From positions 1 to 64,000 of the IMG/VR virus record IMGVR_UViG_3300023235_000015: 64,000 bases of DNA. One strand, written 5' to 3'. Position 1 is the first letter of the stretch. Each line of letters opens with the position of its first letter. Shown here piece by piece: positions 1,398-64,000 of this stretch. Both the position numbers and the translations under genes were made by a program. The DNA comes from a virus. The notes under the pieces are model-generated. The model saw nothing but the letters and a program-made list of their open reading frames with translations. It made no database searches and had not been told where the DNA came from.

Positions 1398-2266
1398 TGA
1401 AAAATAGAATTATAGTTTATAATACAGAAATTGGTATTCCTTTAAACGACCAAATTACTAATAATAACAGAGCTTTTAATATTCCTATTAGTTCTACTGT
1501 AAGACTTAAGTTGCGCCAATGGGATTCTGATAGTATCTATATAGATTCTGCTGCTAGTATAATAAACGCTAGCTCGGGTCAAGTTAGATATATTTGGAAT
1601 GCTAATGACTTTATTATTCCGGGGCAATATATAGCTTGGTGGGAAATTAATTCATCTGGTATTATTTTTGAATCTGATGAATTTTCTATTATTATTGCAA
1701 CTCATGCGCCGGGTCTAGAAACTCGCACAGGTGCTATATATCACGCCGCAAAATCTTACCTGCCTATTACATGGGAACGTTTAGAAGAATCTGAACACTA
1801 TGGAGACAGACAGTTACAAAGCAAAGTAGAAATTGCGAAGCTTTCGCTGCTAGGTGTTGAAATTCTTGCAGAAGATGAAGCCGCTATGGATATTAGAGTA
1901 GCTAATTATATCGCTAAGATTGCTGTAATTTCTATAATACCTGCTGGTAAGGACTATTGGGCTTCTATGGTAAGCTCAAAGACTTCTGTTGGTACAGATG
2001 AGTCAGTTTCATATCCTGATAGAATTGAAATGCTGGATCAGCTACACGATCAACTAGTAGAAGAAATTGCTAAAGAACGTGACGATATTTCAGAACTTAT
2101 AGACTTACCAAACATTAGACGCGCTAACTCAGTACCTAGCGTATCTGATGGCACAGATGAAGGATACATTACGCCTAATCCACATACGCACTTTAGAGAT
2201 TATGGATTTCCAGTTAGAGGTAATACCTTACGCGGCAGAAACGCAGTTAGAGGGAGATTTTGGTAA
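1397..2266 (+). CDS. putative head-tail adaptor with N-terminal Ig-like domain
   Basis: N-terminus resembles ORF 718 (GQVRYIW...G.Y.AWW). C-terminal helical part has SVGTDESVSY. Lies upstream of the tail genes. Confidence 0.45.
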   Translation: MKNRIIVYNTEIGIPLNDQITNNNRAFNIPISSTVRLKLRQWDSDSIYIDSAASIINASSGQVRYIWNANDFIIPGQYIAWWEINSSGIIFESDEFSIIIATHAPGLETRTGAIYHAAKSYLPITWERLEESEHYGDRQLQSKVEIAKLSLLGVEILAEDEAAMDIRVANYIAKIAVISIIPAGKDYWASMVSSKTSVGTDESVSYPDRIEMLDQLHDQLVEEIAKERDDISELIDLPNIRRANSVPSVSDGTDEGYITPNPHTHFRDYGFPVRGNTLRGRNAVRGRFW

Positions 2267-3154: not shown

Positions 3155-3772
3155 ATGGCAGATTTCTATAAGACAGGATTAACAGACGATTGGGCTACAC
3201 TTAAAGGTGCCGCCCGTATTCTAGTTGCCGACATTGGACAGGCTTACCCTTCAGGTATTGACGATATTATCGTTGTAGCTTCAGGCGTAACTCAGTACAA
3301 CGCAAGAGCAGGTTGGGAGGATTTGGGAGCTACTAAAGGTGGCGTAACAGTCTCAACTAACCACACTGAAGAAACACTTTCAGTAGACCAGATATTTGGA
3401 GATATTTATTCTTCTCCTACATCATGGGAAGCGTCAGTACAGACAGCCCTAGCCGAAATGACTCTAGAACACCTTCAGCTAGTATGGGAAGGTTCAGCTA
3501 TTACGACTAACGGTGCTGGTGAACGTATTCTTGGATACGGACAGTCAGACGAGTATAAGCAGCGTCGTCTAGCAGTTCTATTCAAGAACGCTAGAACTGA
3601 TAAGATTCGCGCTACAGTAGTACGTATCGCGCAGCTACAGCCAGTAGAGTCAAGCATTGTTTTCAACCGTGAAGGCGATCAAATGACAATTCCGGTTCAG
3701 TTCAAAGCTCTAGCGGATACATCAATTGCTGATCCGAAGAGTCGTTTCTTCTTGACATTCGAGCAAGCGTAA
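3155..3772 (+). CDS. major tail (tube) protein
   Basis: DLGATKGGV, VDQ, LAEMTLEHL and IPVQFKA are tail-tube motifs. Strong SD, highly biased codons, followed by a terminator. Confidence 0.85.
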   Translation: MADFYKTGLTDDWATLKGAARILVADIGQAYPSGIDDIIVVASGVTQYNARAGWEDLGATKGGVTVSTNHTEETLSVDQIFGDIYSSPTSWEASVQTALAEMTLEHLQLVWEGSAITTNGAGERILGYGQSDEYKQRRLAVLFKNARTDKIRATVVRIAQLQPVESSIVFNREGDQMTIPVQFKALADTSIADPKSRFFLTFEQA

Positions 3773-3812
3773 CAGTTACATCTGTTATTTTGCTAGCTAA
3801 AGCAGCATTAAG

Positions 3813-3855
3813 AAAAGGGGTTGGTAATCGAAAGGTTGCCAGCCCCTTTATTTTT
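3813..3855 (+). terminator. intrinsic terminator
   Basis: AAAAGGGGTTGGTAATC-GAAA-GGTTGCCAGCCCCTTT followed by ATTTTT. Confidence 0.85.
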
Positions 3856-3866
3856 ACAGGATAATT

Positions 3867-5518: not shown

Positions 5519-8500
5519 ATGGCTAAATCTGATACTACAACTTTAACATTAATTTTAAACGCTATAAATAATATCTCACCGGAGACTGAAGATGCGCGTA
5601 AAAGTCTTGCTCAACTAAGAAAAGACTTAGAGGACGCAAATAAGCGCCAAGAGGATATAGACAAGCAGCGTGGTAAAGATTCTGATGCTATTAATAAACA
5701 AGCTGATTCAACTAACAAGCTTACTGACTCTCAAAAAAAGTTAAATGATGAGCAAGAACGAAGTGCAATCTTAGATGAAAAAATTAAGAATACTACTTCT
5801 AGAATGGAAGATAACGCTGATCAACTAAAAAGTTTAAATGAAGCTCTAAAAAGAGCGTCAGTAAGCAGACAAGAGGCAGCTAAGTGGAAAAGAATCGCTG
5901 CTGGTTATTATAAAGATGAAAATTCTACTAGTACAATAACTAAATTTACGCCTGACAAGAATGATGGCTATGGCTCTGGACCAAGATGGATTATAGAAAA
6001 TGACGATGGAAACTATAGCGATCCATTTAATACTTATAAAGAAGCTAAAGAAGATTATGATAGTTGGGTAAGTTCTAATCGTGTTTCAGAAAGAGTAAGT
6101 TATAAAAAACTTATTGCTCGTATGGAAGATTCTCAAAATAACTATGTAAGTAGTTTACAAGAACACGTTAATGAAATAAAGAAAATACAAAATGATCAGA
6201 TAAAAAATGAACAAAATACAACAAAACAAATAAATTCAGAATTAGCTAAGAGAGCAGACCTAGTTGGCGGCGGGTCTGGTGGTAGCGGTGGTTCTGGTGG
6301 TAGTGGTGGCGGCGGGTCTGGTGGTAGTGGTGATTCTGATGAAGAAGATGAGAGAAATAGAAGAATTAGACAGCTTAAAGTTGCTAGCTTAAGAGGTAAG
6401 CTAGGTAGGCTTGCTAACCAAACACAGGAAATGCGTAATCAGTATAGGGGTGGCGGCTCTATAGAAAGTGAGCTTCTAATAGACGAATGGGCTGCTAAAG
6501 CTAAAGCTATTCATGATGAATTAGACGCAATGGGTGAATCTTATGATGATATCATGGATAAGGCTAGAAGAAATCAAATTCATACAGAGTCCTTTGGCAA
6601 GAAGCATACTGCCGCGCTTAAAATGGATAGAAAGATTGAAGAAGATAAGGGCGCAGCATTTCTTCATATTGCTGACACACAAGAAGATAGTTACAAAAAA
6701 TCAATTGAGTTTGGCAAAGAAAATCTTACACTTACACAGGCTGCTACTAAAGTTGAAAAAGAACTTAGTAAACAAAGGTTGCTTGAAGGCAAGCAGGTTC
6801 AAGGCGACCTTAAAGAACAAGGCAAACTAGATAACCAAAACTCTGAGGCTAGGGACAAAGCGCACCGCGAGAGGCAAAAAGCCGAACAACGTATGGGCAG
6901 CACTATTGAATCAATCAATACCCGTACTGAAAAGCACATTGACGATCAAGTTGCTGGAACCAATAAGATTGCCCAAGAGCGCAAAAAGCTTGCTAAGCTT
7001 CTTGTTGAAGAACATGATCTTATTAAGAAAGGCGGCGATCAACTTGATAAAGATGCTAACAAAACCGCACAGGAAGTTTCTAGAAGGGCTATTACTAAAA
7101 GGGGAGGAAAGTATGATGATCTTGGCGGCATAGCTGATAATGTAATTGCTGAAAGGGACCGCTCAATTGCCGCAGCTAAAGCTGAAGCTGAAGCAACTAA
7201 AATTGCTAATAGGGAAAGAGCTAAATCTATAGCTGTAGAGAAAGAAGTTGCTAAAGCTAAGAAAAAAACTAATAAGGAAACTGATAGACAAAGTAGTTTA
7301 TTTAATGATGTAATAAATAATTGGAGAATAACTGCTAGGGCTGGTGGCGATCTTTCACGTAGGCTAGGTCGTCTAGGACTAGCTGTTCGTGGTCTAGCTA
7401 TCGTTGGTATTTTAGTATTTGCTCGTTCTCTAGTTGCTGCCCTATCAGCACTTGCTGGTTCTGCTATATCTCTAGCAGGCTCATTAATTTATGCTGCTGG
7501 TGCGTTAGGTGGAGTTTTTACCGCTGCTGTAGCACAAGCTATACCAGTAGTCGGGCTGTTAGCAACGGCTATGAGCAGGCTATCAGCTATTCAAGAGGCT
7601 GTCAAACAAAGCGACTTATTGAAAAAGCAACAGTTTGGTGATACTGGTGCTGAAGAAGCCGCAATTGATAATACTGATCAGATTGCTGATGCTAACCGCG
7701 CATTACAAGAAGCACAAGAAGGAGTTACTGAGGCGCGTAAGGATGCTAAGAAAGAACTTCAAGAACTTATCTATAAAGAGCGCGAAGCTGAATTAGCTCT
7801 AAGAGGATCAGTTCTTTCACAGGCAGACGCACAAAGAGCTTTAAGAGAGTCTATACGTGGTGGCGATGTTGAAGGAATAGCACAAGCTCAGTTAGATATA
7901 GATACTACAAGATTTGATACTGGTCAGTCACGTAGAAACTTAAGAGATGTTCGTAAAGAACGTAAACTTGGTAAACGGAATGGAGTTAATGGTGACGATG
8001 GAGTAAAAGACGCTATAAAGGCTGTAGCTGATGCTCAGCGTAATTTAGCTGACGCTCACAAGACTGCTGCAACTGCTGCTGATACTCAAAGTGCCGCTAC
8101 AGATAATCTAGCTTATTTCTTGTCTAAACTTTCTCCTGCTGAAAAAGCTTTATTCAAACAACTACAATCTTTCAAGGCTAGATTTGCTAAAGCTACTAGA
8201 CCTATTACAGATATTATTATTAGGTCTTTTGGTGATGGATTACAAAATGTAGAAAAACTTTTATTCAATCCTAAAATTCTTAAAGCTTTTACTGCTCTTG
8301 CTACAGTTGTTGGCAACCAGATTGAAAGAATTTCTAAAGTCTTAACAAATTCAGGATTTACAAGATTCTTTGAAGAAACAATTGGTGAATCATCTAAAAA
8401 CTTTCCAACAATTGTCTCAATGTTCTTGGAGCTTGCTAAGGTATTTAGAAACATTGCGACAGCTTCAGCGCCAGTACTAACTGAATTTCTAAAATTCTTT

Positions 8501-20009: not shown

Positions 20010-21410
20010 TTGATTGAGATAAAAGTCACAAACTTCATTGAGGTTAGGGGGCTACCTGATAAATGGGTAGCTTCTCTTGCTAAGCTGGTGTCAGTAGAAA
20101 ACGAGAAGAAGGCTACAGCGATAAGTGAACATACTTATGGCGCTGAATACCTACCTGATCGTTTGACCTACCTAGAAGATCAGGGTGATTACATTACGCT
20201 ACCTCTAGGCTTTGAGAAAGAGCTTACAACGCGCCTGACTGAGACTAAGACACCTTACAAAAGACTTAGATGTACTAATTTTGTATCGTCAAAATCTTAT
20301 ACAGATCATGATACTATTGCCCTTAGAGATAGACAGCCAGAAGCTAAACAAGCTATGCTAGACAATAAGCATGGACTTATTATGGCTTCTCCCGGCTTTG
20401 GCAAAACTACAGTTGGCCTTCACGCTATTTTAGAAATAGGTCAAAGAACAATAATCTTAGTTGACAAAACTGAGCTAGCTAAACAGTGGATAGTTCGCGC
20501 CAAAGAACAATTTGGTATTGATATAGGTCTTATTGGAGATAACCAATGGAACGAGCAAGACATTACAGTAGCTACGCTTCAAACTCTAAGGTCTAGAGAA
20601 GAACAGCTAAACAATGAAAACTTTTGGGATAGATGGGGAGTTGTTGTATATGATGAATCGCATCATGCTGGTAGCTCAGATAGCTACTTTAATATTGTCA
20701 GTAAGTTTAAAGCTGATCGTAGGTACGGCCTTTCAGCTACTAAAGGAAAGAGCCAACAGAAATCAAAGGTGGCCGAACTAGTATTTGGCCCTGTTTTATT
20801 TGAAGATAAAACAAATCAACTTATTCCTACTGTACACAGAGTAAAAACTAATTTTCAATTTGAATATCGTGGTACAGATATTATCAATGGAAAGCGCGTA
20901 CAGAATAATTACCAAGCTATGATAAAAGAACTTATCGCTGACATAGATAGAAATAAATTAATTGCGTCTAAGATAAATAACGAACCTAACTGCGCTCATC
21001 TAGTTATATCAAGGCGGCTACAGCACCTAGAGGACGTTCAAAGCGCCGTAATAGAGGCTGGCTTCGATCCTAAGCGGTGTTTTATGCTTACAGGCAAGGA
21101 ATCCTCAGACCGACGCTTAGAGGTCGGGAGAATGGCTGACAGCGGCTCTATCGCTATATTTTCAACCGTAGCTGACGAGGGATTGGATATCCCGCGCCTA
21201 GACAGAATACACTTACCATTTCCATCTAAGAATCATGAGACAACTAGACAACAAGTAGGTAGAGGTTTAAGAAACCATCCTGATAAAGATGAAACTATTA
21301 TCTATGATTATGTTGATTTAGAAGTATCTGTAATGCGCAATCAATGGAGAAACCGTTTGAATAGATATTACCGTCCAAACAAATTTCCCATTGAATCTTA
21401 CGAATTTTAG
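20010..21410 (+). CDS. superfamily 2 DNA helicase (UvsW/ResIII-like)
   Basis: SPGFGKT, DESHH, GLSAT, EGLDIP and QQVGRGLR motifs. Confidence 0.9.
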   Translation: MIEIKVTNFIEVRGLPDKWVASLAKLVSVENEKKATAISEHTYGAEYLPDRLTYLEDQGDYITLPLGFEKELTTRLTETKTPYKRLRCTNFVSSKSYTDHDTIALRDRQPEAKQAMLDNKHGLIMASPGFGKTTVGLHAILEIGQRTIILVDKTELAKQWIVRAKEQFGIDIGLIGDNQWNEQDITVATLQTLRSREEQLNNENFWDRWGVVVYDESHHAGSSDSYFNIVSKFKADRRYGLSATKGKSQQKSKVAELVFGPVLFEDKTNQLIPTVHRVKTNFQFEYRGTDIINGKRVQNNYQAMIKELIADIDRNKLIASKINNEPNCAHLVISRRLQHLEDVQSAVIEAGFDPKRCFMLTGKESSDRRLEVGRMADSGSIAIFSTVADEGLDIPRLDRIHLPFPSKNHETTRQQVGRGLRNHPDKDETIIYDYVDLEVSVMRNQWRNRLNRYYRPNKFPIESYEF

Positions 21411-21779
21411 TATATCATATAGGCAGGATTCTGTTTTTCAGTCAATCATCTGTCTCAGTGTTGCTCTCGCTTTTCAGCGCACTTAGCTCCCTCAATAGGA
21501 AGTGCATACTGGCCGCATCTTTACATGGTGGCTGCTCTCTACCTTCATTCCTCAAAGTTTTCGGCATCTTAGTTTTCACGCCACTATGATTAGTCCTTAC
21601 AGGAAATATTTTGAGATTGCATACCCTGCTTAACGTCTTTTCTACTTATTGGTAAATAGCGGGTTTCCCCTCCCAAAGCGGATAAGTCATTTTATATTAG
21701 GTTAGCCCTAACAGGGTTGTCCTGACCTTCCTCGACAATGAATTTGAGCCATATGCCGCGACTGACCAGATATACTAAA
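21406..21779 (-). ncRNA. rnpB: RNase P RNA (bacterial-type ribozyme)
   Basis: CR I GAGGAAGGUCAGGAC (21733-21719) and CR V ACAGAAUCCUGCCUA (21434-21420) form P4 with the bulged U. P1 is 11 bp (UUUAGUAUAUC/GAUAUACUAAA). P2 is GUCAGUC/GAUUGAC. CR IV AGACAGAUG. P15 UCUC/GAGA with L15 GGUA. Confidence 0.9.
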
Positions 21780-21829
21780 TAGGAGTGGTGGGAATCGAAC
21801 CCAACGTATTATCTGTAACCATTACCCCT
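21780..21829 (-). ncRNA. minimal tRNA-like element (acceptor stem + T-arm, no anticodon arm)
   Basis: AGGGGU...ACUCCU A acceptor stem, UGGG-UUCGAUU-CCCA T-arm, AAUGGUU D-loop-like stretch. Confidence 0.5.
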
Positions 21830-21833
21830 TAAG

Positions 21834-21858
21834 TACTGCCGTCTGGATTTGAACCAGA
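21834..21858 (-). pseudogene. tRNA 3'-half remnant
   Basis: UCUGG-UUCAAAU-CCAGA-CGGCAGU-A directly after the HNH stop codon, with no good 5' half. Confidence 0.55.
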
Positions 21859-22248
21859 TTAAAGCCTTCCGTCTAGGTATTTATTTTTATACCAGTCGTT
21901 TTCTTCTATGTGAAATATGTGGTGACAATTCCTGCATAAGACTTCGCATTTATTTATTTCATCTAAAATGCGTTGTTGAGCTATTTGTTTATGCGGCGCG
22001 TCAAATAAGCCGAATGATTTTTCGCCTCTTATATGGTGAAAGTCCAAACACCGAATATCTTTTTGACCACACTCACCACAAGGGTTGGTTGATAAATATT
22101 CGCACAGAAAAATTTGAATTTCTCTAGTTCGTTTAGCTTTTTGAATCTTAACTCTAGCTTTTTGTTTCTTTTTGTTCTTCTGATACCAGTCTCTTTGGTA
22201 CTGGCGATTTCGTTTTCGTTGCTCTAAATTATTAGGATCGTATGACAT
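21859..22248 (-). CDS. HNH endonuclease
   Basis: CGECG...LDFHH...KCEVLCRNCH..FH. Confidence 0.9.
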   Translation of the reverse strand: MSYDPNNLEQRKRNRQYQRDWYQKNKKKQKARVKIQKAKRTREIQIFLCEYLSTNPCGECGQKDIRCLDFHHIRGEKSFGLFDAPHKQIAQQRILDEINKCEVLCRNCHHIFHIEENDWYKNKYLDGRL

Positions 22249-22254
22249 AACTGT

Positions 22255-22263
22255 ATTATATCA
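22255..22263 (-). promoter_or_regulatory. extended -10 promoter (leaderless HNH mRNA)
   Basis: TGATATAAT ends 6 nt before the ATG at 22248. Confidence 0.6.
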
Positions 22264-22281
22264 AGTTATAAGATCAATTCA

Positions 22282-22357
22282 TAGGGAAGGCGGGGATTGA
22301 ACCCGCGTGAACCAATTACCCTTTCAACTGCATATAAGACAGAGGGGATACTTCCCA
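22282..22357 (-). tRNA. non-canonical tRNA-Ile(UAU)-like RNA lacking a D-arm
   Basis: Acceptor GGGAAG/CUUCCC, arm CUGU-CUUAUAU-GCAG extended by CCCU/AGGG, T-arm GCGGG-UUCAAUC-CCCGC. Confidence 0.6.
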
Positions 22358-22396
22358 ACGATTAAAGACTCTGTTATAGAGTCTTTGGTAATACAA

Positions 22397-22468
22397 TAGG
22401 ATATAAAGGTTATGCTCCTTTTTCTCTGCCTTATCAGAGCAGCGTCTTAACTAGTGGACAAATATCCA
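22397..22468 (-). tRNA. tRNA-Ile(GAU)
   Basis: Cloverleaf, anticodon loop CUGAUAA, atypical T-loop AGCAUAA, U1.U72. Confidence 0.8.
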
Positions 22469-22481
22469 ATGTGTAAATAAG

Positions 22482-22554
22482 TGGAGCTAATAGGATTCGA
22501 ACCTACATAAAATACGTTGCAAACGTATCGCCTTGCCAATCGAGCCATAACCCC
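22482..22554 (-). tRNA. tRNA-Ala(UGC)
   Basis: Cloverleaf, G3.U70, loop UUUGCAA. Confidence 0.92.
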
Positions 22555-22570
22555 TTGATAAATTTTTAAG

Positions 22571-22643
22571 TGGTCAATCAGGGATTCGAACCCCGGACCT
22601 TCCGCATGTAAAACGGCTGCGCTACCAACTGCGCCAATCGACC
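22571..22643 (-). tRNA. tRNA-Val(UAC)
   Basis: Cloverleaf, loop UUUACAU. Confidence 0.92.
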
Positions 22644-22679
22644 TTAAATTTTACTTCTTGACTTTCTTTTTCTTAACGT

Positions 22680-22740
22680 ATTCGAACCTATGCTTTCTTG
22701 GTATGTAACACCAAAGCTCTACCTACTGAGCTAATCGGGT
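22680..22740 (-). pseudogene. truncated tRNA-Val(UAC)
   Basis: Intact D- and anticodon arms and GGUUCGAAU, but the 3' T-stem strand and 3' acceptor strand are absent. Confidence 0.7.
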
Positions 22741-22753
22741 ATGTAATTTTTAA

Positions 22754-22826
22754 AGCGCCTATTTGGATTCGAACCAAAATCTTCGACCTTCGTAGAGTCG
22801 TGTGTTATCCATTACACTATAGACGC
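22754..22826 (-). tRNA. tRNA-Arg(ACG)
   Basis: Cloverleaf, loop CUACGAA. Confidence 0.92.
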
Positions 22827-22871
22827 ATATGTAGGTTACTTTGAAGTAGAGCGTATACCTACAATACTCTA

Positions 22872-22944
22872 CACCCCTACTAGGATTCGAACCTAGACCT
22901 AACGACTTAGAAGATCGTTGCATTATCCATTGTGCTATAGAGGT
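22872..22944 (-). tRNA. tRNA-Arg(UCU)
   Basis: Cloverleaf, loop CUUCUAA. Confidence 0.92.
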
Positions 22945-23016
22945 ATATTGCTAGTCACAAAAAGTAGCTATTTTTTTACTAGCTCTTACATGAGAGGATA
23001 AGTCAATGTAAGTAAG

Positions 23017-23087
23017 CAGGAAATAAAGGGATCGAACCTTTGTTTGCAGGTTTGGAATCTGCCGTGATGCCATTACACTAATCTCCT
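23017..23087 (-). tRNA. tRNA-Trp(CCA)
   Basis: Cloverleaf, loop UUCCAAA. Confidence 0.9.
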
Positions 23088-23102
23088 ATATTTAATTTTT
23101 AG

Positions 23103-23174
23103 CTGATCCAGAAGGATTCGAACCTTCATTTTTCTGCTTAACAGGCATACGCATTTCCATTATGCTACAGATCA
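23103..23174 (-). tRNA. tRNA-Asn(GUU)
   Basis: Cloverleaf, loop CUGUUAA. Confidence 0.88.
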
Positions 23175-23187
23175 ATGTTTACTACAG

Positions 23188-23269
23188 TATCGCATATAGG
23201 ATTCGAACCTATTCACCCGAAGGAACAGTTTTACAGACTGCCATGACTCTCCAACTTCATCGCTACGAT
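23188..23269 (-). tRNA. tRNA-Tyr(GUA)
   Basis: Cloverleaf with variable arm CC-UUCG-GG, loop CUGUAAA. Confidence 0.9.
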
Positions 23270-23282
23270 ATGTTTTACTTCA

Positions 23283-23354
23283 TGATTCCTGATGGATTCG
23301 CACCACCGACGCGCAACGCTTCAAGATGCCGCTCTACTCCTGAGCTAAGGAACC
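23283..23354 (-). tRNA. tRNA-Phe(GAA)
   Basis: Cloverleaf, loop UUGAAGC, T-loop UGCGAAU. Confidence 0.85.
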
Positions 23355-23367
23355 GTATTTAATTAAG

Positions 23368-23440
23368 GGCGAACAGAGGAATTCGAATCCTCATTTTCTT
23401 GGATCACAACCAAGGGCATTAACCGTTATGCTATGTTCGC
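23368..23440 (-). tRNA. tRNA-His(GUG)
   Basis: Cloverleaf, loop UUGUGAU, C73, genomic -1 base is U rather than G. Confidence 0.9.
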
Positions 23441-23442
23441 AG

Positions 23443-23518
23443 TACGCTCGGAAGGAATCGAACCTTCAAAATCTCTTGTGTCTAAGACAAGCGGCTTTGC
23501 CAGTTTGCCCACAAGCGC
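23443..23518 (-). tRNA. tRNA-Leu(UAG), short variable arm
   Basis: Cloverleaf, loop CUUAGAC. Confidence 0.9.
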
Positions 23519-23535
23519 ATGTTATTTTTACTTCA

Positions 23536-23606
23536 ATCACCGGCTAGGATTCGAACCCAGATAAGATGCCCCAAAAACATCTGTCTTACCGTTAGACGAC
23601 CAGTGA
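23536..23606 (-). tRNA. tRNA-Gln(UUG)
   Basis: Cloverleaf, loop UUUUGGG. Confidence 0.88.
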
Positions 23607-23609
23607 ACA

Positions 23610-23681
23610 TTGCTTAGAATGGATTCGAACCACTATCCCTAGATTCAGAGTCTAGTCACTTACCAATTAGTGTACCAAGCA
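23610..23681 (-). tRNA. tRNA-Gln(CUG)
   Basis: Cloverleaf, loop CUCUGAA. Confidence 0.9.
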
Positions 23682-23695
23682 TTATTTTTACTACA

Positions 23696-23767
23696 AGCCT
23701 AAATACGGAATCGAACCGTAATTATCTGATTACAAAACAGAGGTAATAGCCGTTATACTATTCAGGC
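23696..23767 (-). tRNA. tRNA-Thr(UGU)
   Basis: Cloverleaf, loop UUUGUAA. Confidence 0.9.
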
Positions 23768-23798
23768 GTATGTTGTTCATACATTATACCATACTTCA

Positions 23799-23882
23799 AG
23801 GAAGGGCAGAGATTCGAACTCTGAGGGCTGTTACGCCTAGCTGTTTTCAAAACAGTGTCCTTAACCAATTCGGATACCTTCC
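23799..23882 (-). tRNA. tRNA-Ser(UGA)
   Basis: Cloverleaf with long variable arm, loop UUUGAAA. Confidence 0.9.
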
Positions 23883-23897
23883 ATATTTAATTTTAAG

Positions 23898-23981
23898 CGG
23901 AATACTCAGGGTTCGAACCTGAAGGGCTTTTATGCCTTGTCTCTTTAGCAAAGAGAGTCCTGTCCAATTCGGTTGTATTCC
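23898..23981 (-). tRNA. tRNA-Ser(GCU)
   Basis: Cloverleaf with long variable arm, loop UUGCUAA. Confidence 0.9.
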
Positions 23982-24038
23982 AGATGCCATACCAGTGTAG
24001 CAGATTGTATGCTAGACGGTATGGAGTTTAGTACTTCA

Positions 24039-24111
24039 TGGCGGGTATCGGTGCCGCCCCGATTCCTAGAGCTTATGAGACTCCCGACTTATCTACCTTG
24101 TCCTACCCGCT
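24039..24111 (-). tRNA. tRNA-Met(CAU), possibly initiator-like
   Basis: Loop CUCAUAA, A1.C72 mismatch, atypical T-loop GGCGGCA. Confidence 0.8.
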
Positions 24112-24122
24112 TTGTATGTTAC

Positions 24123-24152
24123 ATTATATCAAATGATAAGGAGTAGCGTCAA
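24123..24152 (-). promoter_or_regulatory. sigma70-type promoter inside the tRNA array
   Basis: TTGACG-N18-TATAAT with TG extension. Confidence 0.7.
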
Positions 24153-24346
24153 CCTTTAATCTAAGTTCTTAATATTAGAGTAGCTTACACCAGACTTCTA
24201 CTGGTTCCTACATAAGTTATAAAAGTTATAAAGAAATATAAAAGGTATCGGGCGGGAGGTACATATTGCGCCATATGCTTCCTCACATTATTCTCAGTAG
24301 AGATTTTTATATTAACCTGCTAGCGGTAGGTCGTCCGATGTTATAG

Positions 24347-24429
24347 TACCCTTACTAGGATTCGAACCTAGACGCATATTTCAGCAGTTGGGCTTAAACC
24401 AACCGTGTCTACCATTTCACCATAAGGGC
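24347..24429 (-). tRNA. tRNA-Leu(UAA)
   Basis: Cloverleaf with variable arm, loop UUUAAGC. Confidence 0.9.
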
Positions 24430-24439
24430 TTATGTAAAA

Positions 24440-24513
24440 TGCTGCTACTAGGATTCGAACCTAGACTTTACCGCGTTTGAAACGGCTTCCTCTACCAATT
24501 GGGATATAACAGC
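24440..24513 (-). tRNA. tRNA-Leu(CAA), short variable arm
   Basis: Cloverleaf, loop UUCAAAC. Confidence 0.88.
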
Positions 24514-24522
24514 TTATGTAAA

Positions 24523-24555
24523 TCAGACTAACAGGATTTGAACCTATATAATCTT
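24523..24555 (-). pseudogene. tRNA(Pro-like) 3' fragment/minihelix
   Basis: AGAUUA-U-AUAGG-UUCAAAU-CCUGU-UAGUCUG-A. Confidence 0.55.
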
Positions 24556-24557
24556 AA

Positions 24558-24628
24558 TCGGAATACGTGGAGTCGAACCACGGCTTCTAAGTTCCAAACC
24601 TAGGGTGCTACCGTAACACCTTATTCCG
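24558..24628 (-). tRNA. tRNA-Pro(UGG)
   Basis: Cloverleaf, C1-G72, loop UUUGGAA. Confidence 0.9.
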
Positions 24629-25010
24629 TTATGAAACGTGAGCTTGTTCTAATTGCGTGACAATTGGCACAAACTAATTCACATTTACTAATTTCTTTTG
24701 ATATCTTTTCTATACCGAAACCTCTTGCGACCATGTTACCAACATTGAATTCTTTATCATTTTCAATATGATCCCAATGCATTACTATAGGTGGGTATGT
24801 ATTGTCGCAATCTGTACAAGGGCCGGACTTTATTTTGTTCGACCATTCTCTTAAGTCTTTACGCCTTGATTTATTTTGTGAAGCCCTTTTGCCTTTATCA
24901 GACTCGTAGCGTTCCTTATCATAAACTTTAACGCAAATCCTACACCAAGATTGTCCCTTATTAAATTCTGATTCTGTTTTAGTCTTAGTACATCTAGAGC
25001 AGTTCTTCAT
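24621..25010 (-). CDS. HNH endonuclease with N-terminal zinc finger
   Basis: CSRC..CRIC and CTDC...MHWDH...KCELVCANCH. The stop codon lies inside tRNA-Pro. Confidence 0.9.
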   Translation of the reverse strand: MKNCSRCTKTKTESEFNKGQSWCRICVKVYDKERYESDKGKRASQNKSRRKDLREWSNKIKSGPCTDCDNTYPPIVMHWDHIENDKEFNVGNMVARGFGIEKISKEISKCELVCANCHAIRTSSRFITE

Positions 25011-25016
25011 AAATGA

Positions 25017-25044
25017 AATATACCATATTTGGAAACTTTGTCAA
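25017..25044 (-). promoter_or_regulatory. sigma70-type promoter (leaderless HNH mRNA)
   Basis: TTGACA-N16-TATATT with TG extension, 6 nt before the ATG at 25010. Confidence 0.6.
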
Positions 25045-25058
25045 ATGTTCCAAATAAA

Positions 25059-25130
25059 TTGCCGGTATGGGTAACGATCCCATTTCTGAAAGTTAAGAGC
25101 TTCCTGCATCACCATTAATGCTTACCAGCT
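25059..25130 (-). tRNA. tRNA-Lys(CUU)
   Basis: Cloverleaf, loop CUCUUAA, T-loop AUCGUUA, A1.A72. Confidence 0.82.
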
Positions 25131-25138
25131 ATGTAAAG

Positions 25139-25210
25139 CGGTTCATGAGGGTTACGATCCCTCTTATTCTGATCGACAATCAGATGTAATAACCAGTATA
25201 CGAATGAACC
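25139..25210 (-). tRNA. tRNA-Asp(GUC)
   Basis: Cloverleaf, loop UUGUCGA, T-loop AUCGUAA. Confidence 0.88.
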
Positions 25211-25213
25211 AAA

Positions 25214-25288
25214 TGGTACGGAATAAGAGAATTGAACTCTTGTTTCAAGGATGAAAACCTCGCGTATTCTCCACTATACTAATCCCGC
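25214..25288 (-). tRNA. tRNA-Glu(UUC)
   Basis: Cloverleaf, loop UUUUCAU, encoded CCA. Confidence 0.9.
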
Positions 25289-25301
25289 GTAAATTTTAAA
25301 A

Positions 25302-25374
25302 AGCATCATTAGAGATTCGAACTCTATTCTCTTGGGTGGAAGCCAAGTATGTCAACCATTTCTACTTATGATGC
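25302..25374 (-). tRNA. tRNA-Gly(UCC)
   Basis: Cloverleaf, loop CUUCCAC, U73. Confidence 0.88.
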
Positions 25375-25377
25375 ATA

Positions 25378-25449
25378 TTGCCCCTGAGTGACTTGCACAC
25401 TCGCCCCAAGGCTTAAAAGGCCCGGATCTACTTGTTGAATTAAGGAGCT
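25378..25449 (-). tRNA. tRNA-Lys(UUU)
   Basis: Loop CUUUUAA, T-arm GAGUG-UGCAAGU-CACUC, weak D-stem, A1.A72. Confidence 0.75.
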
Positions 25450-25461
25450 TCGTTTACTAAG

Positions 25462-25539
25462 TGGAGAAGAAGGGTATCGAACCCTTGTCTTAGAGAGCGC
25501 ACTTCGGCAGTAACTCTAATCGAATCCTATCGCTTCCCC
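25462..25539 (-). ncRNA. ssrA: mini-tmRNA: tRNA-like domain only, no mRNA-like domain
   Basis: GGGGAAG/CUUCUCC-A acceptor with G3.U70, stemless D-loop CGAUAGGAUUCGA, P2 UUAGAG/CUCUAA closed by 18 nt, GAC linker, T-arm AAGGG-UUCGAUA-CCCUU. Confidence 0.75.
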
Positions 25540-25570
25540 GTGTTTTCCTACAGTTGATACCTGTTCGTAC

Positions 25571-25579
25571 ATTATAGCA
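25571..25579 (-). promoter_or_regulatory. extended -10 promoter upstream of the mini-tmRNA
   Basis: TGCTATAAT. Confidence 0.55.
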
Positions 25580-25602
25580 CAGATGCCCCGCGCCGTGTAG
25601 AG

Positions 25603-25674
25603 AGATTGAGAAAGGATTCGAACCTTCATAAGACAGGGTTGCAGCCTGCCGCGTCACCATTCCGCCACTCAATC
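25603..25674 (-). tRNA. tRNA-Cys(GCA)
   Basis: Cloverleaf, loop CUGCAAC, U73. Confidence 0.92.
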
Positions 25675-25685
25675 GTGTTCTAGGT

Positions 25686-25714
25686 ACTATACAGGGTCGC
25701 GCGGAGAATGTCAA
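25686..25714 (-). promoter_or_regulatory. sigma70-type promoter heading the tRNA array
   Basis: TTGACA-N17-TATAGT. Confidence 0.75.
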
Positions 25715-26019
25715 GCTCTGCGATTAAAGACCCAAGGGCGCTCTCCTTCAATAATTTCATCAGCATGAAAATCGTCGTGACAATATTTACACATTAAAAC
25801 GCATTTATTAACTTCGGACCAAAATCTTTTATGGCTACATTTAGCTAAGTAAGTAACTGTATTTAGTTTAGTTTCAGGGTTTATATGATGAAACTCTAAA
25901 CTTACGTGTGGAGTAATACACTCTGGAATGTAACATTTATTTCCAAGATGTTCTTTAGCATCATTTACTCGCTTATTATATCTACGTTTTTGTGATGCTT
26001 TTTTTGCTTCGCTTTGCAT
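25711..26019 (-). CDS. HNH endonuclease
   Basis: LGNKC...C...LEFHHINP...KCVLMCKYCH..FH. Confidence 0.88.
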   Translation of the reverse strand: MQSEAKKASQKRRYNKRVNDAKEHLGNKCYIPECITPHVSLEFHHINPETKLNTVTYLAKCSHKRFWSEVNKCVLMCKYCHDDFHADEIIEGERPWVFNRRA

Positions 26020-26200
26020 AGAACCTTTTGTATTTATATAAACTCATGTGATAGGCCGGGAGGGAAGGTTTGATATCTCAGCCGTTTCCCTTTATTCCCG
26101 CGCTCCTATCACCTGACCAGTATAGCACAGTCGGTCCTGACGCGCTAGAGGGGCAGCCGGGGTACGATGTGGCGCATAAAGTATGTAACGCCTAAGTCAA

Positions 26201-28840
26201 TTAAGCGCCGCATACTCCCCCGGCGCACGTTTCTAGGTCTGACTCAAATACCACGCCTTCCTTGCCAATTGCTTCTTCATAAGTAACAGAAGTTAAAGGT
26301 TGACCGCCACGCGCTCCATCAGGATAGCAAGTAACGCCTCTTAGTTTAGGCAGATAACGGTAAAGCATTTCTTTAAAGTCCTCTACTTCTTCTTCTTCTG
26401 TAATTGGGTAAGGCAGATTAATTGTTGAACTAATAGCATGATCAACATATTGCTGAACAAATGCTTGAAATTCAATTCTTTTTTCTACGTTATAAGCTAG
26501 TTCGTGGGCGCTTTCAATGCTAGATGGATGTACTCCATCTTCATCAATAAGACGTTTAGCTGTAGGGTCTACAATATATTCATGTACCCAATTCTTTCCG
26601 TCTTTAAGATAACGGCGCTTCATAGCTACGCAGTAAATTGGCTCAATTCCTGTAGTTGTTTCAGCAATAATTCCGATTGTCCCTGTGGGCGCAATAGCTC
26701 TAACTTTTACAGGCTTTGACAGGCCAAGTTTTTTAGAATATTTTTCTGATGCTGCATTTGAAGCTGACTCATAAATCTCTAGCCACTCTCTTAGCTCGTC
26801 ATTTGGAGCATATTTATATTGACGCTTTAGAAGCCACTCATGGATTCCCATTAGGCCAAGTCCTAAACGACGATTTTTAGTTCTTATATTTTTTACTTTT
26901 TCATAAGGCACATGTGAGTAAACGGTTCCTGATAATAGAAACAGAACTGCTTTATCTATAACCTCTGCAAACTCTTCTTTTGTGTCAATGTTTGCTAAGT
27001 TAATTGAACCTAGATTACAAATGTCTGAATCGTCAGCACTTGTAACTTCGCAACAGTTAGAAATAATTACACCTTCCGCCATAAAGGAATGTTCTTCTAC
27101 CTTTACATCAGCGCAATAAACATCTTCAATCCCGTCCTCTACAACTTCTAGAACTTTAATTGTTGATGCTCGATAAGGTTTGTAGCTATCTAGGTTAATA
27201 TTTAGTCTGTGGGTAGGAACCTCATCAGCAAATTTAGCTCTGAAATCTGCCGCGATAACTAGCTGCCAACATTTTGTCTTGCCAAATGTGGAAGTTCCGG
27301 CAGAACTTATATTAGACTGTATACCAATCTGTTCTAAAGCTTTTTGTACGCCATTAAGAAAACTTTTATGTTTTGATGCTAAACGAATAGCTTTATTGAT
27401 TGGTTCCCAATTGCCATCAGCATCAAATAGTCCACCAACAAATGACTTAATTTGTTCAGGTGAGGCCGCATAGATATCTTTGGGAAATTCAGCCTTTCCT
27501 CGACCTGAAAATTTCTCATTAACTGAGAAATATAGTCTAGTGTAACCACGACTATCATTTTCATTTACTGAATTGTATCCGTCTAGCCATTCCAAACAAT
27601 CTTTAGATTCATCTGTACATAAGGTTAGGTCGGCACCACCAGTATTAGTGAAGGAACCATCGCCATAGATGTATCCCATAGTATAATAGTCCTTGCACAA
27701 AGCGTTGCCGCTAGTTGTAGGATATGAAACGTGAAGGATATCTCCACTTTCTAGGTCTTTAGCGGGAATTTTTAAAATCCTTTCAAATTTGCGCCTTGAA
27801 CCGGCACCAGAATATTCTTCAACAAGAAACTCATGATTTGGTTCACAACGAATCTCACGACCGCCAGAAATTAACACGCAAACAACGCTAGCTTCTTTTT
27901 CAGTTAGTGAAAATACAACGTCATTAGCCCATTGTTTACCTGTCCACACAGTTGTAGGATTATCCACGATATCTGATACTGGTTGATATCCTTGCCGTGT
28001 TAAAACATTAGTTCCGGCTGTTACCGGAGCATTGCGTAAAGTCTCGCCAGCATTTTCTCCAACGTCAATTGAAAAACCCGGCTCTGCTGTTTTTAGCATC
28101 CTCTTAGTAGTCTGGTGGTAAACTTCTCTGGCATGATTATGTAGTTCGTGATCCTCGTTATCGTGAGCCTCAAAAAACTCATCGTCTAAAAGAACACTAA
28201 TATTTGTCATATCTAATCTTGCCGGAAAGTTAAAGTCTTTCTCTTTTTCTGCGCGTACTATATCGCTCCAATTCTTAGCATCAATAAACTGAAAGATATC
28301 ACCGTGTTTCCAGTTTAGACCAGCCCAAATAGCTGACCGTCTAGAGCCGCCTTGCATAATATGACGGCCACACTCATTAACCATTTCCATAATAGAAATA
28401 GGTCCAGAGGCAACACCGCCAGTTTTAGTAATAACTGAGCCAGATTGTCTAACATCTGAGTAGTCAATTCCAATTCCTGCTCCTGTCATTAGAGCCATTG
28501 AAGCGTTAGCTAGTAGCTCACTCCAACCCTCTCTAGAATCTTCACAGCGCATCAGGAGGCAGTTTTGTGTCTGGTGAAAGTCGCGCCCCGAAGCGTATAG
28601 ATAACGACCGCCTGCTAAAAATTGTTGTGCTGCTAAGTATTGTTCTAGTATATCAGCAGATTCAGTTTCTTCCATGCTGATAGCCTCTAGATTAGCTTGA
28701 ATTACTCGCTTGGCAGTATCAGGCCAATCTTCTACAATATTTCCATCTTTATCTTTAAATGCGTATTTTTGTTCGTAAATTCCTCTTGCGAAAGGGGAAA
28801 AGTCTTGGCCCTGTTTAGCGGGTCGTACTGCTGTCGGCAT
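26201..28840 (-). CDS. nrdJ: ribonucleotide reductase, class II (NrdJ-like), intein-containing
   Basis: GGRYL, NCLL, GSRRSA, LRNA|CCE (NxCxE), CNLGSINL, APTGT, ISSTINLP and C-terminal CAGGVC. No small-subunit gene in the window. Confidence 0.85.
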   Translation of the reverse strand: MPTAVRPAKQGQDFSPFARGIYEQKYAFKDKDGNIVEDWPDTAKRVIQANLEAISMEETESADILEQYLAAQQFLAGGRYLYASGRDFHQTQNCLLMRCEDSREGWSELLANASMALMTGAGIGIDYSDVRQSGSVITKTGGVASGPISIMEMVNECGRHIMQGGSRRSAIWAGLNWKHGDIFQFIDAKNWSDIVRAEKEKDFNFPARLDMTNISVLLDDEFFEAHDNEDHELHNHAREVYHQTTKRMLKTAEPGFSIDVGENAGETLRNAPVTAGTNVLTRQGYQPVSDIVDNPTTVWTGKQWANDVVFSLTEKEASVVCVLISGGREIRCEPNHEFLVEEYSGAGSRRKFERILKIPAKDLESGDILHVSYPTTSGNALCKDYYTMGYIYGDGSFTNTGGADLTLCTDESKDCLEWLDGYNSVNENDSRGYTRLYFSVNEKFSGRGKAEFPKDIYAASPEQIKSFVGGLFDADGNWEPINKAIRLASKHKSFLNGVQKALEQIGIQSNISSAGTSTFGKTKCWQLVIAADFRAKFADEVPTHRLNINLDSYKPYRASTIKVLEVVEDGIEDVYCADVKVEEHSFMAEGVIISNCCEVTSADDSDICNLGSINLANIDTKEEFAEVIDKAVLFLLSGTVYSHVPYEKVKNIRTKNRRLGLGLMGIHEWLLKRQYKYAPNDELREWLEIYESASNAASEKYSKKLGLSKPVKVRAIAPTGTIGIIAETTTGIEPIYCVAMKRRYLKDGKNWVHEYIVDPTAKRLIDEDGVHPSSIESAHELAYNVEKRIEFQAFVQQYVDHAISSTINLPYPITEEEEVEDFKEMLYRYLPKLRGVTCYPDGARGGQPLTSVTYEEAIGKEGVVFESDLETCAGGVCGA
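27056..28027 (-). mobile_element. intein (324 aa, LAGLIDADG) in RNR, Pro1/class-3-like
   Basis: Starts PVTAGTNVLTRQG and ends GVIISN|C. Block F VYCADV. MGYIYGDG and GGLFDADG motifs. Confidence 0.88.
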
Positions 28841-63360: not shown

Positions 63361-63762
63361 CTAACTATAACTTGATGATATAAGCCAAGTGGGATTTTCC
63401 CACTTAACAATTTCTTTTTCTTTAGCCCATCTATTACAAATTTGTATTTCTTGTGGTGTAGGGCCAAGAATACTATTTGTAAAACTAGAAGTACCTTTTT
63501 CTAGTTTTTCTGCTACCTGATAATTACTCCAATAATAACCTTTTACAGCTAGTCCATAGTAAAACCATCCATCCCCACCCTGAGAAACTAGCTGAAACGG
63601 ACAATCTTGTTCTAATTCTAAATTATAAGCATAATCGCTAAAGCTGCCATATTTTTCTTCCATAGCTTCAAATTCTTCATATGGTTTTTCTCCAAACCAA
63701 CTATCCCACCAGTCATCGCCAGCTATTCCATAAAATAAAATACCACTAGCACTACTACCCAT
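63361..63762 (-). CDS. hypothetical protein
   Basis: SD GGAG before MGSSASGILFYG. Confidence 0.55.
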   Translation of the reverse strand: MGSSASGILFYGIAGDDWWDSWFGEKPYEEFEAMEEKYGSFSDYAYNLELEQDCPFQLVSQGGDGWFYYGLAVKGYYWSNYQVAEKLEKGTSSFTNSILGPTPQEIQICNRWAKEKEIVKWENPTWLISSSYS

Positions 63763-64000
63763 TATATTCAACTCCAAACCATTCTGAAATATCGTTTTGA
63801 AAATTCTCGCTAATGTATCGCACATCGTCTAAGATAATCTTTGTCATTACTCTATTGCCACGATGATCATATAGAGGGTAGGCTGTACGTAGAACGTAGC
63901 CCTCAATCTCTTTATTGCCAACGTGGTCATGTAGTATAGCAGGTTCTCCCTCGTCTGCTAGGTCAATGGCAAGTAGCATATCTGAGATTACGTTAGGGAT
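63755..64000 (-). CDS. hypothetical protein (5' partial)
   Basis: ORF runs to the window edge. Confidence 0.45.
   Translation of the reverse strand: MPNVISDMLLAIDLADEGEPAILHDHVGNKEIEGYVLRTAYPLYDHRGNRVMTKIILDDVRYISENFQNDISEWFGVEYNG

Follow-up and report, generated by a model that had tools for sequence, protein, structure and literature searches.

A diverged RNase P RNA closing a 26-tRNA array in an uncultured phage: a probable tRNA supply cluster with part of the maturation machinery attached

Introduction

The RNA subunit of ribonuclease P (RNase P) is, to our knowledge, regarded as a gene of cells and organelles, and a full-text literature search found no published account of a phage- or virus-encoded RNase P RNA. 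The subject of this work is a diverged type-A RNase P RNA (further called the P RNA) of 374 nt, which is the last gene of a dense array of transfer RNA (tRNA) genes in an uncultured phage. The analysed stretch, called the window throughout, is the first 64 kb of the 102,342-bp IMG/VR virus record IMGVR_UViG_3300023235_000015, a 102-kb genome rated 100% complete by CheckV. A preliminary description of the window, made from the letters and open reading frames (ORFs), had presented the array as a self-contained translation-support module.

The closest described molecule is the bacterial type-A RNase P RNA (Rfam RF00010; Escherichia coli M1 RNA, gene rnpB). The order and pairing of helices P1, P2, P3, P4, P5, P15, P16 and P18 are shared with it, as are the conserved regions CR-I, CR-IV and CR-V, the bulged U of P4, the GGU of loop L15 and a length of about 375 nt. 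Unlike the bacterial RNA, the phage copy ends a tRNA array, scores 37 bits, has a compact specificity fold of 96 nt and two extra hairpins, and is accompanied by no cognate RnpA gene. Plastids keep rnpB and ssrA genes, and in jakobid mitochondria the transfer-messenger RNA (tmRNA) is reduced to its tRNA-like domain (Rfam mt-tmRNA). In organelles a small genome bears tRNA genes beside an RNase P RNA which is reduced or diverged and a tmRNA devoid of its tag, the proteins being encoded elsewhere, and the same combination is met in the phage; in contrast to organelles, the phage relies on an infected host and not on a nucleus, and its RNAs were gained rather than retained, the likeness being one of description only.

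Among phages, T5-like and T4-like genomes possess tRNA regions with homing endonucleases and small stable RNAs other than tRNAs. The dense co-oriented cluster, several promoters, interleaved HNH-type endonucleases and extra tRNA-like RNAs are common to those regions and to the window, where a D10-like helicase is a neighbour; in contrast, an RNase P RNA and a tmRNA consisting of the tRNA-like domain only were not found described there, and megablast and blastn searches of GenBank phages returned no match to the present array. The GOLLD/ROOL RNAs (RF02032) are likewise large structured RNAs co-oriented within horizontally moving tRNA arrays with HNH genes. The nearest case in print is a cluster of GOLLD, HNH and 32 tRNAs, in a paper which also cites T4 SegB (PMC6582537). 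No activity is known for GOLLD/ROOL, nor do they resemble RNase P, whereas the RNA in the window is a homologue of a known ribozyme. Finally, the tmRNA of mycobacteriophage DS6A has been listed as 'TLD only', that is, restricted to the tRNA-like domain, with the remark that a molecule similar to such a tmRNA is a strong inhibitor of tmRNA, perhaps through titration of SmpB (Hudson, Lau and Williams 2014; PMC4131195). The window encodes a comparable RNA, called here the mini-tmRNA, which is also phage-encoded and little more than a tRNA-like domain; unlike that of DS6A, it belongs to another phage lineage and stands within a tRNA array with its own extended -10 element, and the two are likened by description, not by sequence.

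The RNase P RNA of the array

The P RNA occupies positions 21406-21779 of the minus strand. The RF00010 match (21404-21777) covers the full model (1-367) with 37.3 bits and an E-value of 4e-9 for the region and 1.6e-11 for the genome. Its alignment spans P1, P2, P3, CR-I, P5, P15-P16, CR-IV and CR-V and skips the P18 region and the specificity domain, where 162 model positions stand against 96 nt of the phage RNA. Helices placed by homology are P1, P2, P3, P4 with its bulged U, P5/P7, P8, a P10/11-like helix, a GAAA-capped hairpin, P15, P16 and P18, and two extra hairpins lie between P18 and CR-IV. They were drawn in this way after RNAalifold, run on two sequences, had chosen P4 over P2; the unconstrained minimum-free-energy fold recovers most of them.

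The elements expected of a catalytic domain are present. P1 has 9-11 bp, P2 has 7 bp with its 3' strand beside CR-IV, and P3 has 8 bp. The P4 pseudoknot is formed by CR-I (GAGGAAAGUCC-like) with CR-V (ACAGAA..CCNGC) and comprises 7 bp and the bulged U; two of its positions differ from E. coli (A:U and G:C in the window) and both are compensated. Among 62 RNase-P-like sequences from viral contigs, 41 fitted the CR-I/CR-V motif, and in these the two P4 pairs were always Watson-Crick (C:G in 25, G:C in 14 and A:U in 2 at one pair; A:U in 36 and G:C in 5 at another). P15 (UCUC/GAGA), P16 (UUCCU/AGGAA) and the 3' side of L15, UGAAGGUA, are all found, and the GGU of L15 is predicted to pair with the 3'-CCA of tRNA. 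In the specificity domain P7, P8, the P10/11-like helix and the GAAA-capped (P12-like) hairpin were placed by hand, and neither inspection by hand nor Infernal recognised CR-II, CR-III, P9, P13 or P14 in this domain of the window RNA. On this homology and pairing, the element at 21406-21779 is a genuine type-A RNase P RNA, greatly diverged but with its catalytic half intact, in agreement with the preliminary description, which had put an RNase P RNA at the end of the array.

Relatives and co-occurrence with the array

Two genes flank the array, that of a D10-like helicase at 20010-21410 on the plus strand and that of a ribonucleotide reductase at 26201-28840 on the minus strand, with tail genes upstream. 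Homologues of the helicase exist at 77-82% identity, and a profile scan found a 7.6-kb contig, OEIV010002333.1 (L077 further in the text; 80% helicase identity), which is the sole close relative compared. It is syntenic: the helicase is followed by a P RNA, at least 20 tRNAs, an HNH gene and then the reductase. Its P RNA is 312 nt long, scores 44 bits in an alignment to the whole model, 1-367 (E-value 2.5e-11), and is about 81% identical to the window copy.

The comparison of these two RNAs carries much of the argument. Standard pairs make up 94.6% of the paired cells, and there are eight two-sided compensatory changes: three in P1, one in P4 (A:U in the window, G:C in L077), one in P10/11 and three in P18, whereas sliding the partner by 1-3 columns leaves 0-1 such changes. 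A ninth, in P8 (U-A to C-G), is hidden by a one-column MAFFT misalignment and is not counted among the eight. P2 and P3 are invariant, P15, P16 and the 3' side of L15 are identical, and the same is true of the junctions of the specificity domain. The nucleotide identity of the P RNA is 81% versus 76% for the neighbouring helicase gene; the stretch from the third HNH gene to the reductase gives no alignment between window and L077, and the latter is devoid of the whole Gly-Glu-Lys(CUU)-HNH2 block.

Two more distant syntenic loci complete the picture. Between helicase and reductase, locus L061 (59% helicase identity) holds one tRNA but lacks a P RNA, and at 44% identity L078 shows a 300-bp gap with neither tRNA nor P RNA. 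Since array and P RNA are both present in the window and in L077 and both absent from L061 and L078, it can be said that the P RNA was gained or lost along with the array. The preliminary description had proposed co-occurrence of the two in relatives as its check, and what was found is the converse of the outcome it named as damaging. Among further searches for relatives, a single-protein search of IMG/VR found none and a profile search gave only L061 at a useful distance. A scan of genome contigs returned helicase relatives of at most 33% identity, mostly from Clostridia and Desulfobacterota metagenome-assembled genomes, with no clue to the host, and a search with a tail protein was equally uninformative on the host.

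L077 also holds a weak match to manA-RNA (3626-3866, minus strand; 27 bits, gathering score 55), situated in a 240-nt insertion between two tRNA-Ser genes which is absent from the window.

Viral RNase P RNAs beyond this phage

When IMG/VR was scanned for CR-I and CR-V set apart as in type-A RNAs, 59 loci were recovered. Between 3 and 35 tRNAs were present in the sequence retrieved around 22 of these loci; every tRNA shares the orientation of the P RNA, and in most of these 22 one lies within 45 nt of it. Rfam was applied to nine loci: seven exceed the 100-bit cut-off (168-280 bits), and the other two reach only 99 and 46 bits. The neighbours of these RNAs are genes for tail-spike, tail-fibre, virion, HNH and reductase proteins. 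A scan for a lineage-specific motif, GTCGAGGAAGGTCRGGAC, yielded five chance matches and one unrelated small P RNA, that of locus L162, where this smaller copy lies inside 19 tRNAs. Locus L037 (IMGVR_UViG_3300031227_008087, 26 kb) carries, at 3202-3405 and 7430-7900, a truncated RNase P-like RNA of 204 nt (46 bits) and GOLLD (192 bits), besides 35 tRNAs.

In GenBank phages, megablast and blastn gave no match to the window P RNA or to the copy of locus L017, and the copies of L014 and L025 match there only unannotated metagenomic 'Bacteriophage sp.' records and MW495066. The latter (MW495066.1 111320-119472, 'Microcystis phage MaAM05', L182) was considered as a cultured-phage example and rejected; it carries fabI, engB, mtgA and glyS with an unannotated RNase P RNA and looks like a bacterial chromosome.

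The tRNA array and its expression

The RNA genes of the array, at 21406-25674 (4.3 kb), are all on the minus strand. Default settings of ARAGORN recognised 22 tRNAs; very loose thresholds gave hundreds of false calls and were abandoned. Rfam contributed two more, Gly(UCC) at 25302-25374 (48 bits) and, as a weak match, Lys(UUU) at 25378-25449 (30 bits), and folding together with L077 orthologues added Ser(GCU) at 23897-23981 and Met(CAU) at 24040-24110. The total is 26 tRNAs, 24 ordinary and two with aberrant T-loops (Lys-UUU and Met-CAU), and all 20 amino acids are covered, with the caveat that Met and Lys(UUU) decoding falls solely to tRNAs whose T-loops are not of the usual UUCGAAU type. With its density, common orientation and flanking tail proteins, D10-like helicase and ribonucleotide reductase, the locus is a phage tRNA array.

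The first RNA gene is tRNA-Cys(GCA) (25602-25674, by ARAGORN). Lys(CUU), Asp, Glu, Gly(UCC) and Lys(UUU) are found within 25058-25448 (ARAGORN, Rfam and fold), and Leu(UAA), a type-I tRNA with anticodon CAA and Pro(UGG) within 24346-24628 (ARAGORN); Met(CAU) (24040-24110) is the only Met decoder of the array. A block of 16 tRNAs (22396-23981; ARAGORN and Rfam, with Ser(GCU) by fold and orthologue) comprises Ile(GAU), Ala, Val, Arg(ACG), Arg(UCU), Trp, Asn, Tyr, Phe, His, Leu(UAG), Gln(UUG), Gln(CUG), Thr, Ser(UGA) and Ser(GCU).

Three minus-strand sites match 11 of the 12 promoter consensus positions (shuffle mean 0.11), and extended -10 sites of the form TGnTAYAMT number eight on the minus strand and none on the plus strand (shuffle mean 0.54). 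A promoter at 25686-25714 is placed just upstream of tRNA-Cys, another at 25017-25044 stands ahead of the second HNH ORF, a sigma-70-like promoter with TTGACG-18-TATAAT and TG is found at 24123-24152, and an extended -10 lies at the mini-tmRNA (~25571-25579), all on the minus strand.

Codon use of the phage is A/U-rich, with G+C at third positions (GC3) of 0.29. Codons read by the U34 anticodons of the array are common: AGA, CUA, UUA, AUA and GUA reach 0.43, 0.32, 0.26, 0.23 and 0.46 of their families. The preliminary description had claimed 26 tRNAs for 20 amino acids in one co-oriented array, an encoded CCA in tRNA-Glu only, six promoter positions and, as a possibility, anticodons suited to AT-rich codons of the phage; the inventory above bears out the first, a check of all tRNA 3' ends the second, the six positions are all among the detected consensus or extended -10 sites, and the codon counts agree with the last.

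Most spacers of the array measure 3-17 nt, and a T follows the discriminator in 26 of its 29 RNAs. Many spacers between tRNAs (e.g. 23270-23282 and 23175-23186, minus strand) are variants of one 12-17 nt motif, UGAAGUAAAACAU / UGUAGUAAACAU, which begins with the U after the discriminator, has mostly U at -1 and may be a common processing signal. Two minus-strand stretches contain neither tRNA nor ORF and have no Rfam match, 22946-23015 (70 nt) and 24153-24345 (~190 nt), and the second is partly alignable to L077 (71% identity). A hairpin at 26040-26135 (z = -1.56) matches no Rfam family.

Maturation genes elsewhere in the genome

A class-II CCA-adding enzyme of 474 aa is encoded outside the window, at about 88536-89960 of the genome (minus strand; L163 532-1956), with the PolyA_pol head, RNA-binding, tRNA_NucTran2_2 and HD domains. 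It had been among the genes proposed for a search in the preliminary description, and its presence fits the 25 of 26 tRNA genes devoid of CCA. No gene for RnpA, SmpB, RtcB, Pth, Thg1 or an RNase Z-type metallo-beta-lactamase was found in the complete 102-kb genome, and the word 'self-contained' must therefore be given up; with no RnpA or SmpB gene, the P RNA and the mini-tmRNA must use host proteins. An RNA ligase of the PF09414 family (264 aa, 68 bits), which may serve tRNA repair, extends from 63755-64000 of the window (minus strand) to position 64549 of the genome, and neither a polynucleotide kinase nor RtcB was found near it.

The mini-tmRNA

An RNA of 81 nt at 25459-25539 (minus strand) matches the tmRNA family RF00023 with 36-45 bits (gathering score 47). 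The features of a tRNA-like domain are all present, namely G3:U70, A73, the GGAUUCGA D-loop analogue, the GAC linker and the T-arm. Between its two halves there is a short capped P2 of 30 nt in place of 308 skipped RF00023 positions, and no resume codon, tag ORF or pseudoknots PK1-PK4 of an mRNA-like domain were found. ARAGORN called no tmRNA in the window.

A motif scan recovered 18 viral loci, 13 of which are RNAs of 81-83 nt with a perfect acceptor stem, representing eight distinct sequences including that of the window. In these eight the acceptor and T-stem pairs are all canonical, the features just listed for the tRNA-like domain, G3:U70 among them, are invariant and five stem positions covary (acceptor 4-6, T-stem 1-2); the same two-tier central hairpin occurs in all, and two sit among 20 tRNAs. 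A 'tmRNA' match in L025 proved to be a different G3:U70 tRNA-like RNA and was set aside. By these shared features the mini-tmRNA is a member of a recurrent viral family restricted to the tRNA-like domain. The earlier idea that it could substitute for tmRNA does not hold, as an RNA with no tag template cannot replace it; the published proposal for DS6A is the opposite one, inhibition through titration of SmpB (PMC4131195).

Unusual tRNAs, tRNA mimics and HNH genes

The T-loop of Met(CAU) is GGCGGCA in the window and GGCAGAA in its positional orthologue (L077 4011-4082, minus strand), where CAU is kept; the T-stem differs in sequence and is completely paired in both. Lys(UUU) (25379-25448) shares the T-loop UGCAAGU with its counterpart (L077 4528-4601, minus strand), with one compensatory T-stem change. 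Judged from this conservation of sequence and pairing, the two tRNAs with odd T-loops are maintained and not decaying. The tRNA at 24440-24513 (minus strand) is labelled Leu(CAA) by ARAGORN, yet it is a type-I tRNA of 74 nt with no long variable arm, and its orthologue (L077 4202-4275, minus strand; 91% identity over 47 nt) has the anticodon CCA (Trp). It looks like an anticodon switch on a Trp-type body, and the amino acid which it would carry is ambiguous.

Towards the end of the array the minus strand holds three tRNA-like elements. An Ile(UAU)-like RNA at 22282-22357 (Rfam tRNA 24.6 bits, below the cut-off, and fold) has no D-arm and bears a D-loop-like motif 3' of the anticodon arm. A degenerate tRNA-like stretch lies at 22684-22740 inside the 16-tRNA block. 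At 21780-21829, directly adjoining the 5' end of the P RNA, there is a 50-nt minihelix of acceptor and T-arm with no anticodon arm, recognised by fold and alignment. In L077 this place is taken by a normal tRNA-Ile(UAU) (1744-1817, minus strand), and from its sequence the minihelix seems to be a second copy of the 3' part of the tRNA-like gene which precedes the first HNH ORF.

That ORF (21859-22248, minus strand, 129 aa) belongs to PHROG HNH families (E-value 8e-20) and is absent from L077. The 3' end of the ORF overlaps the remnant of a T-arm (21842-21858) whose sequence is exactly that of the T-arm in the tRNA-Ile(UAU) of L077, and the motif AGGG(G)UAAU(U)GGUU with a T-arm is common to the D-armless RNA and the minihelix which flank the ORF. 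It looks as if the HNH insertion duplicated and rearranged a tRNA gene at 21780-22357. The second HNH ORF (24621-25010, minus strand, 129 aa; PHROG HNH, E-value 1e-26) overlaps tRNA-Pro with its end, and the third (25711-26019, minus strand, 102 aa; PHROG HNH) heads the array and is kept in L077 (76% aa).

Discussion

The reading which we favour, with a probability of about 0.58, is that the locus is a phage tRNA supply cluster to which part of the tRNA-maturation machinery is attached, the P RNA working with the RnpA of the host. This is the core of the earlier proposal, and it is the conserved place of the P RNA beside the array in L077, the CCA-adding enzyme and the codon match that argue for it. 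In such a scheme several minus-strand promoters would give polycistronic transcripts of about 26 tRNAs, and the set would decode the A/U-rich codons of the phage. The spacers of 3-17 nt and the U after the discriminator point to release of the 3' ends by an RNase Z-type enzyme, in this case that of the host, after which CCA would be added by the phage enzyme encoded ~64 kb away. The P RNA, which keeps P1-P4, the bulged U, the ACAGAA motif and the GGU in L15, would form with host RnpA an extra RNase P or one of altered specificity, and this enzyme would cut the 5' leaders of phage pre-tRNAs, the two with odd T-loops included. Its own 5' end may be set by processing of the abutting minihelix. 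As an accessory part, and by analogy with DS6A, the mini-tmRNA would most likely bind host SmpB (possibly also alanyl-tRNA synthetase and EF-Tu) and damp host trans-translation, and the HNH genes are presumably homing-type passengers which rearrange the array. Of all this, the sequences show the homology of the P RNA, its conservation, its compensated pairs and its co-occurrence with the array; catalysis, recruitment of host RnpA, the route of processing and the action on SmpB are deduced.

Several observations weigh against this scheme. The gathering threshold of RF00010 (100 bits) is reached neither by the window copy (37.3 bits) nor by that of L077 (44 bits), the specificity domain of 96 nt is unaligned to the model, making recognition of the tRNA elbow putative only, and the thermodynamic signal is modest (z = -1.65). 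Covariation between window and L077 comes from two sequences, with the structure drawn from one. The P RNA of L077 is devoid of the two peripheral hairpins of the window RNA, and the mini-tmRNA is missing from this closest relative. Activity of the P RNA in vivo would hinge on a host protein, with no RnpA gene in the genome, and searches of GenBank phages found no cultured phage with such an RNA. The supposed effect on SmpB is taken solely from the published remark on a similar molecule (PMC4131195).

In a bolder version of the same idea, the phage puts RNAs of its own in place of the RNA subunit in two ribonucleoproteins of the host. With its specificity domain remodelled, the P RNA would capture RnpA, so that RNase P is retuned to phage pre-tRNAs, among them those whose abnormal T-loops would be poorly recognised by an ordinary RNase P; the mini-tmRNA would capture SmpB and disable ribosome rescue, and virus-encoded RNase P, taken with the bacterial-like copies of other viral contigs, would be a widespread, undescribed class of host-takeover genes. 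Reasoned from the sequences, it is a speculation to which we give about one chance in four. A different emphasis would see the main value of the module in anti-defence, phage tRNAs and a phage RNase P taking the place of host molecules cut or depleted by tRNA-targeting defence nucleases, with the codon match being secondary. The T4 enzymes Pnkp and Rnl1, which act against PrrC, are a known repair kit of phages facing anticodon nucleases, and the set for 20 amino acids, the isoacceptors, the PF09414 ligase and the HD-domain CCA-adding enzyme resemble a repair-and-replace kit of that kind. Units of mycobacterial tRNA arrays are called a putative anti-defence system in a paper of 2026 (PMC12803027). 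No polynucleotide kinase or RtcB was found, however, and the codon match alone would explain the anticodon set; we consider this emphasis rather improbable.

The remaining doubts concern the P RNA itself. It could be a non-catalytic decoy which soaks up host RnpA and shuts down host tRNA maturation, an idea in keeping with the titration published for a tmRNA of the tRNA-like domain only (PMC4131195), with the unaligned specificity domain and with a genome in which, no RnpA or SmpB gene being present, both RNAs are partner-less versions of the RNAs of host ribonucleoproteins. Such a decoy would, however, also deprive the 26 CCA-less, leader-bearing tRNA precursors of the phage of RNase P, and the elements retained (bulged U of P4, ACAGAA, GGU of L15) serve catalysis and the binding of substrate and go beyond the region which binds the protein, which makes the decoy improbable in our estimate. 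The low Rfam score, the unrecognisable specificity domain, the two hairpins lost in L077 and the series of IMG/VR copies from bacterial-like (280 bits) down to very low scores could also suggest a passenger captured from a bacterium with the tRNA array and now drifting to a pseudogene. Against such drift stand the 94.6% of pairs kept and the eight two-sided compensations at about 19% divergence, the identical specificity-domain junctions and compensated P4, and an alignment about as good as that of the helicase gene (81% vs 76%) where parts of the array are unalignable; decay is the least probable of the alternatives and, in our view, highly unlikely. Decoy, decaying passenger and anti-defence kit are all, we think, less likely than a supply cluster with part of its maturation machinery attached.

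Conclusions

Should phage P RNAs prove active, a true multiple-turnover ribozyme would be among the auxiliary genes of viruses, and tRNA maturation, not just tRNA supply, would be contested during infection. The copies ranging from bacterial-like (~280 bits) to that of the window are a natural experiment on how far RNase P RNA can be stripped or remodelled with its core kept, and on which part of it reads the tRNA elbow. The occurrence of the P RNA alongside conserved tRNAs with abnormal T-loops offers a testable hypothesis of co-evolution. Finally, the mini-tmRNA family turns one published oddity, that of DS6A, into a recurrent viral RNA and a candidate natural inhibitor of trans-translation.

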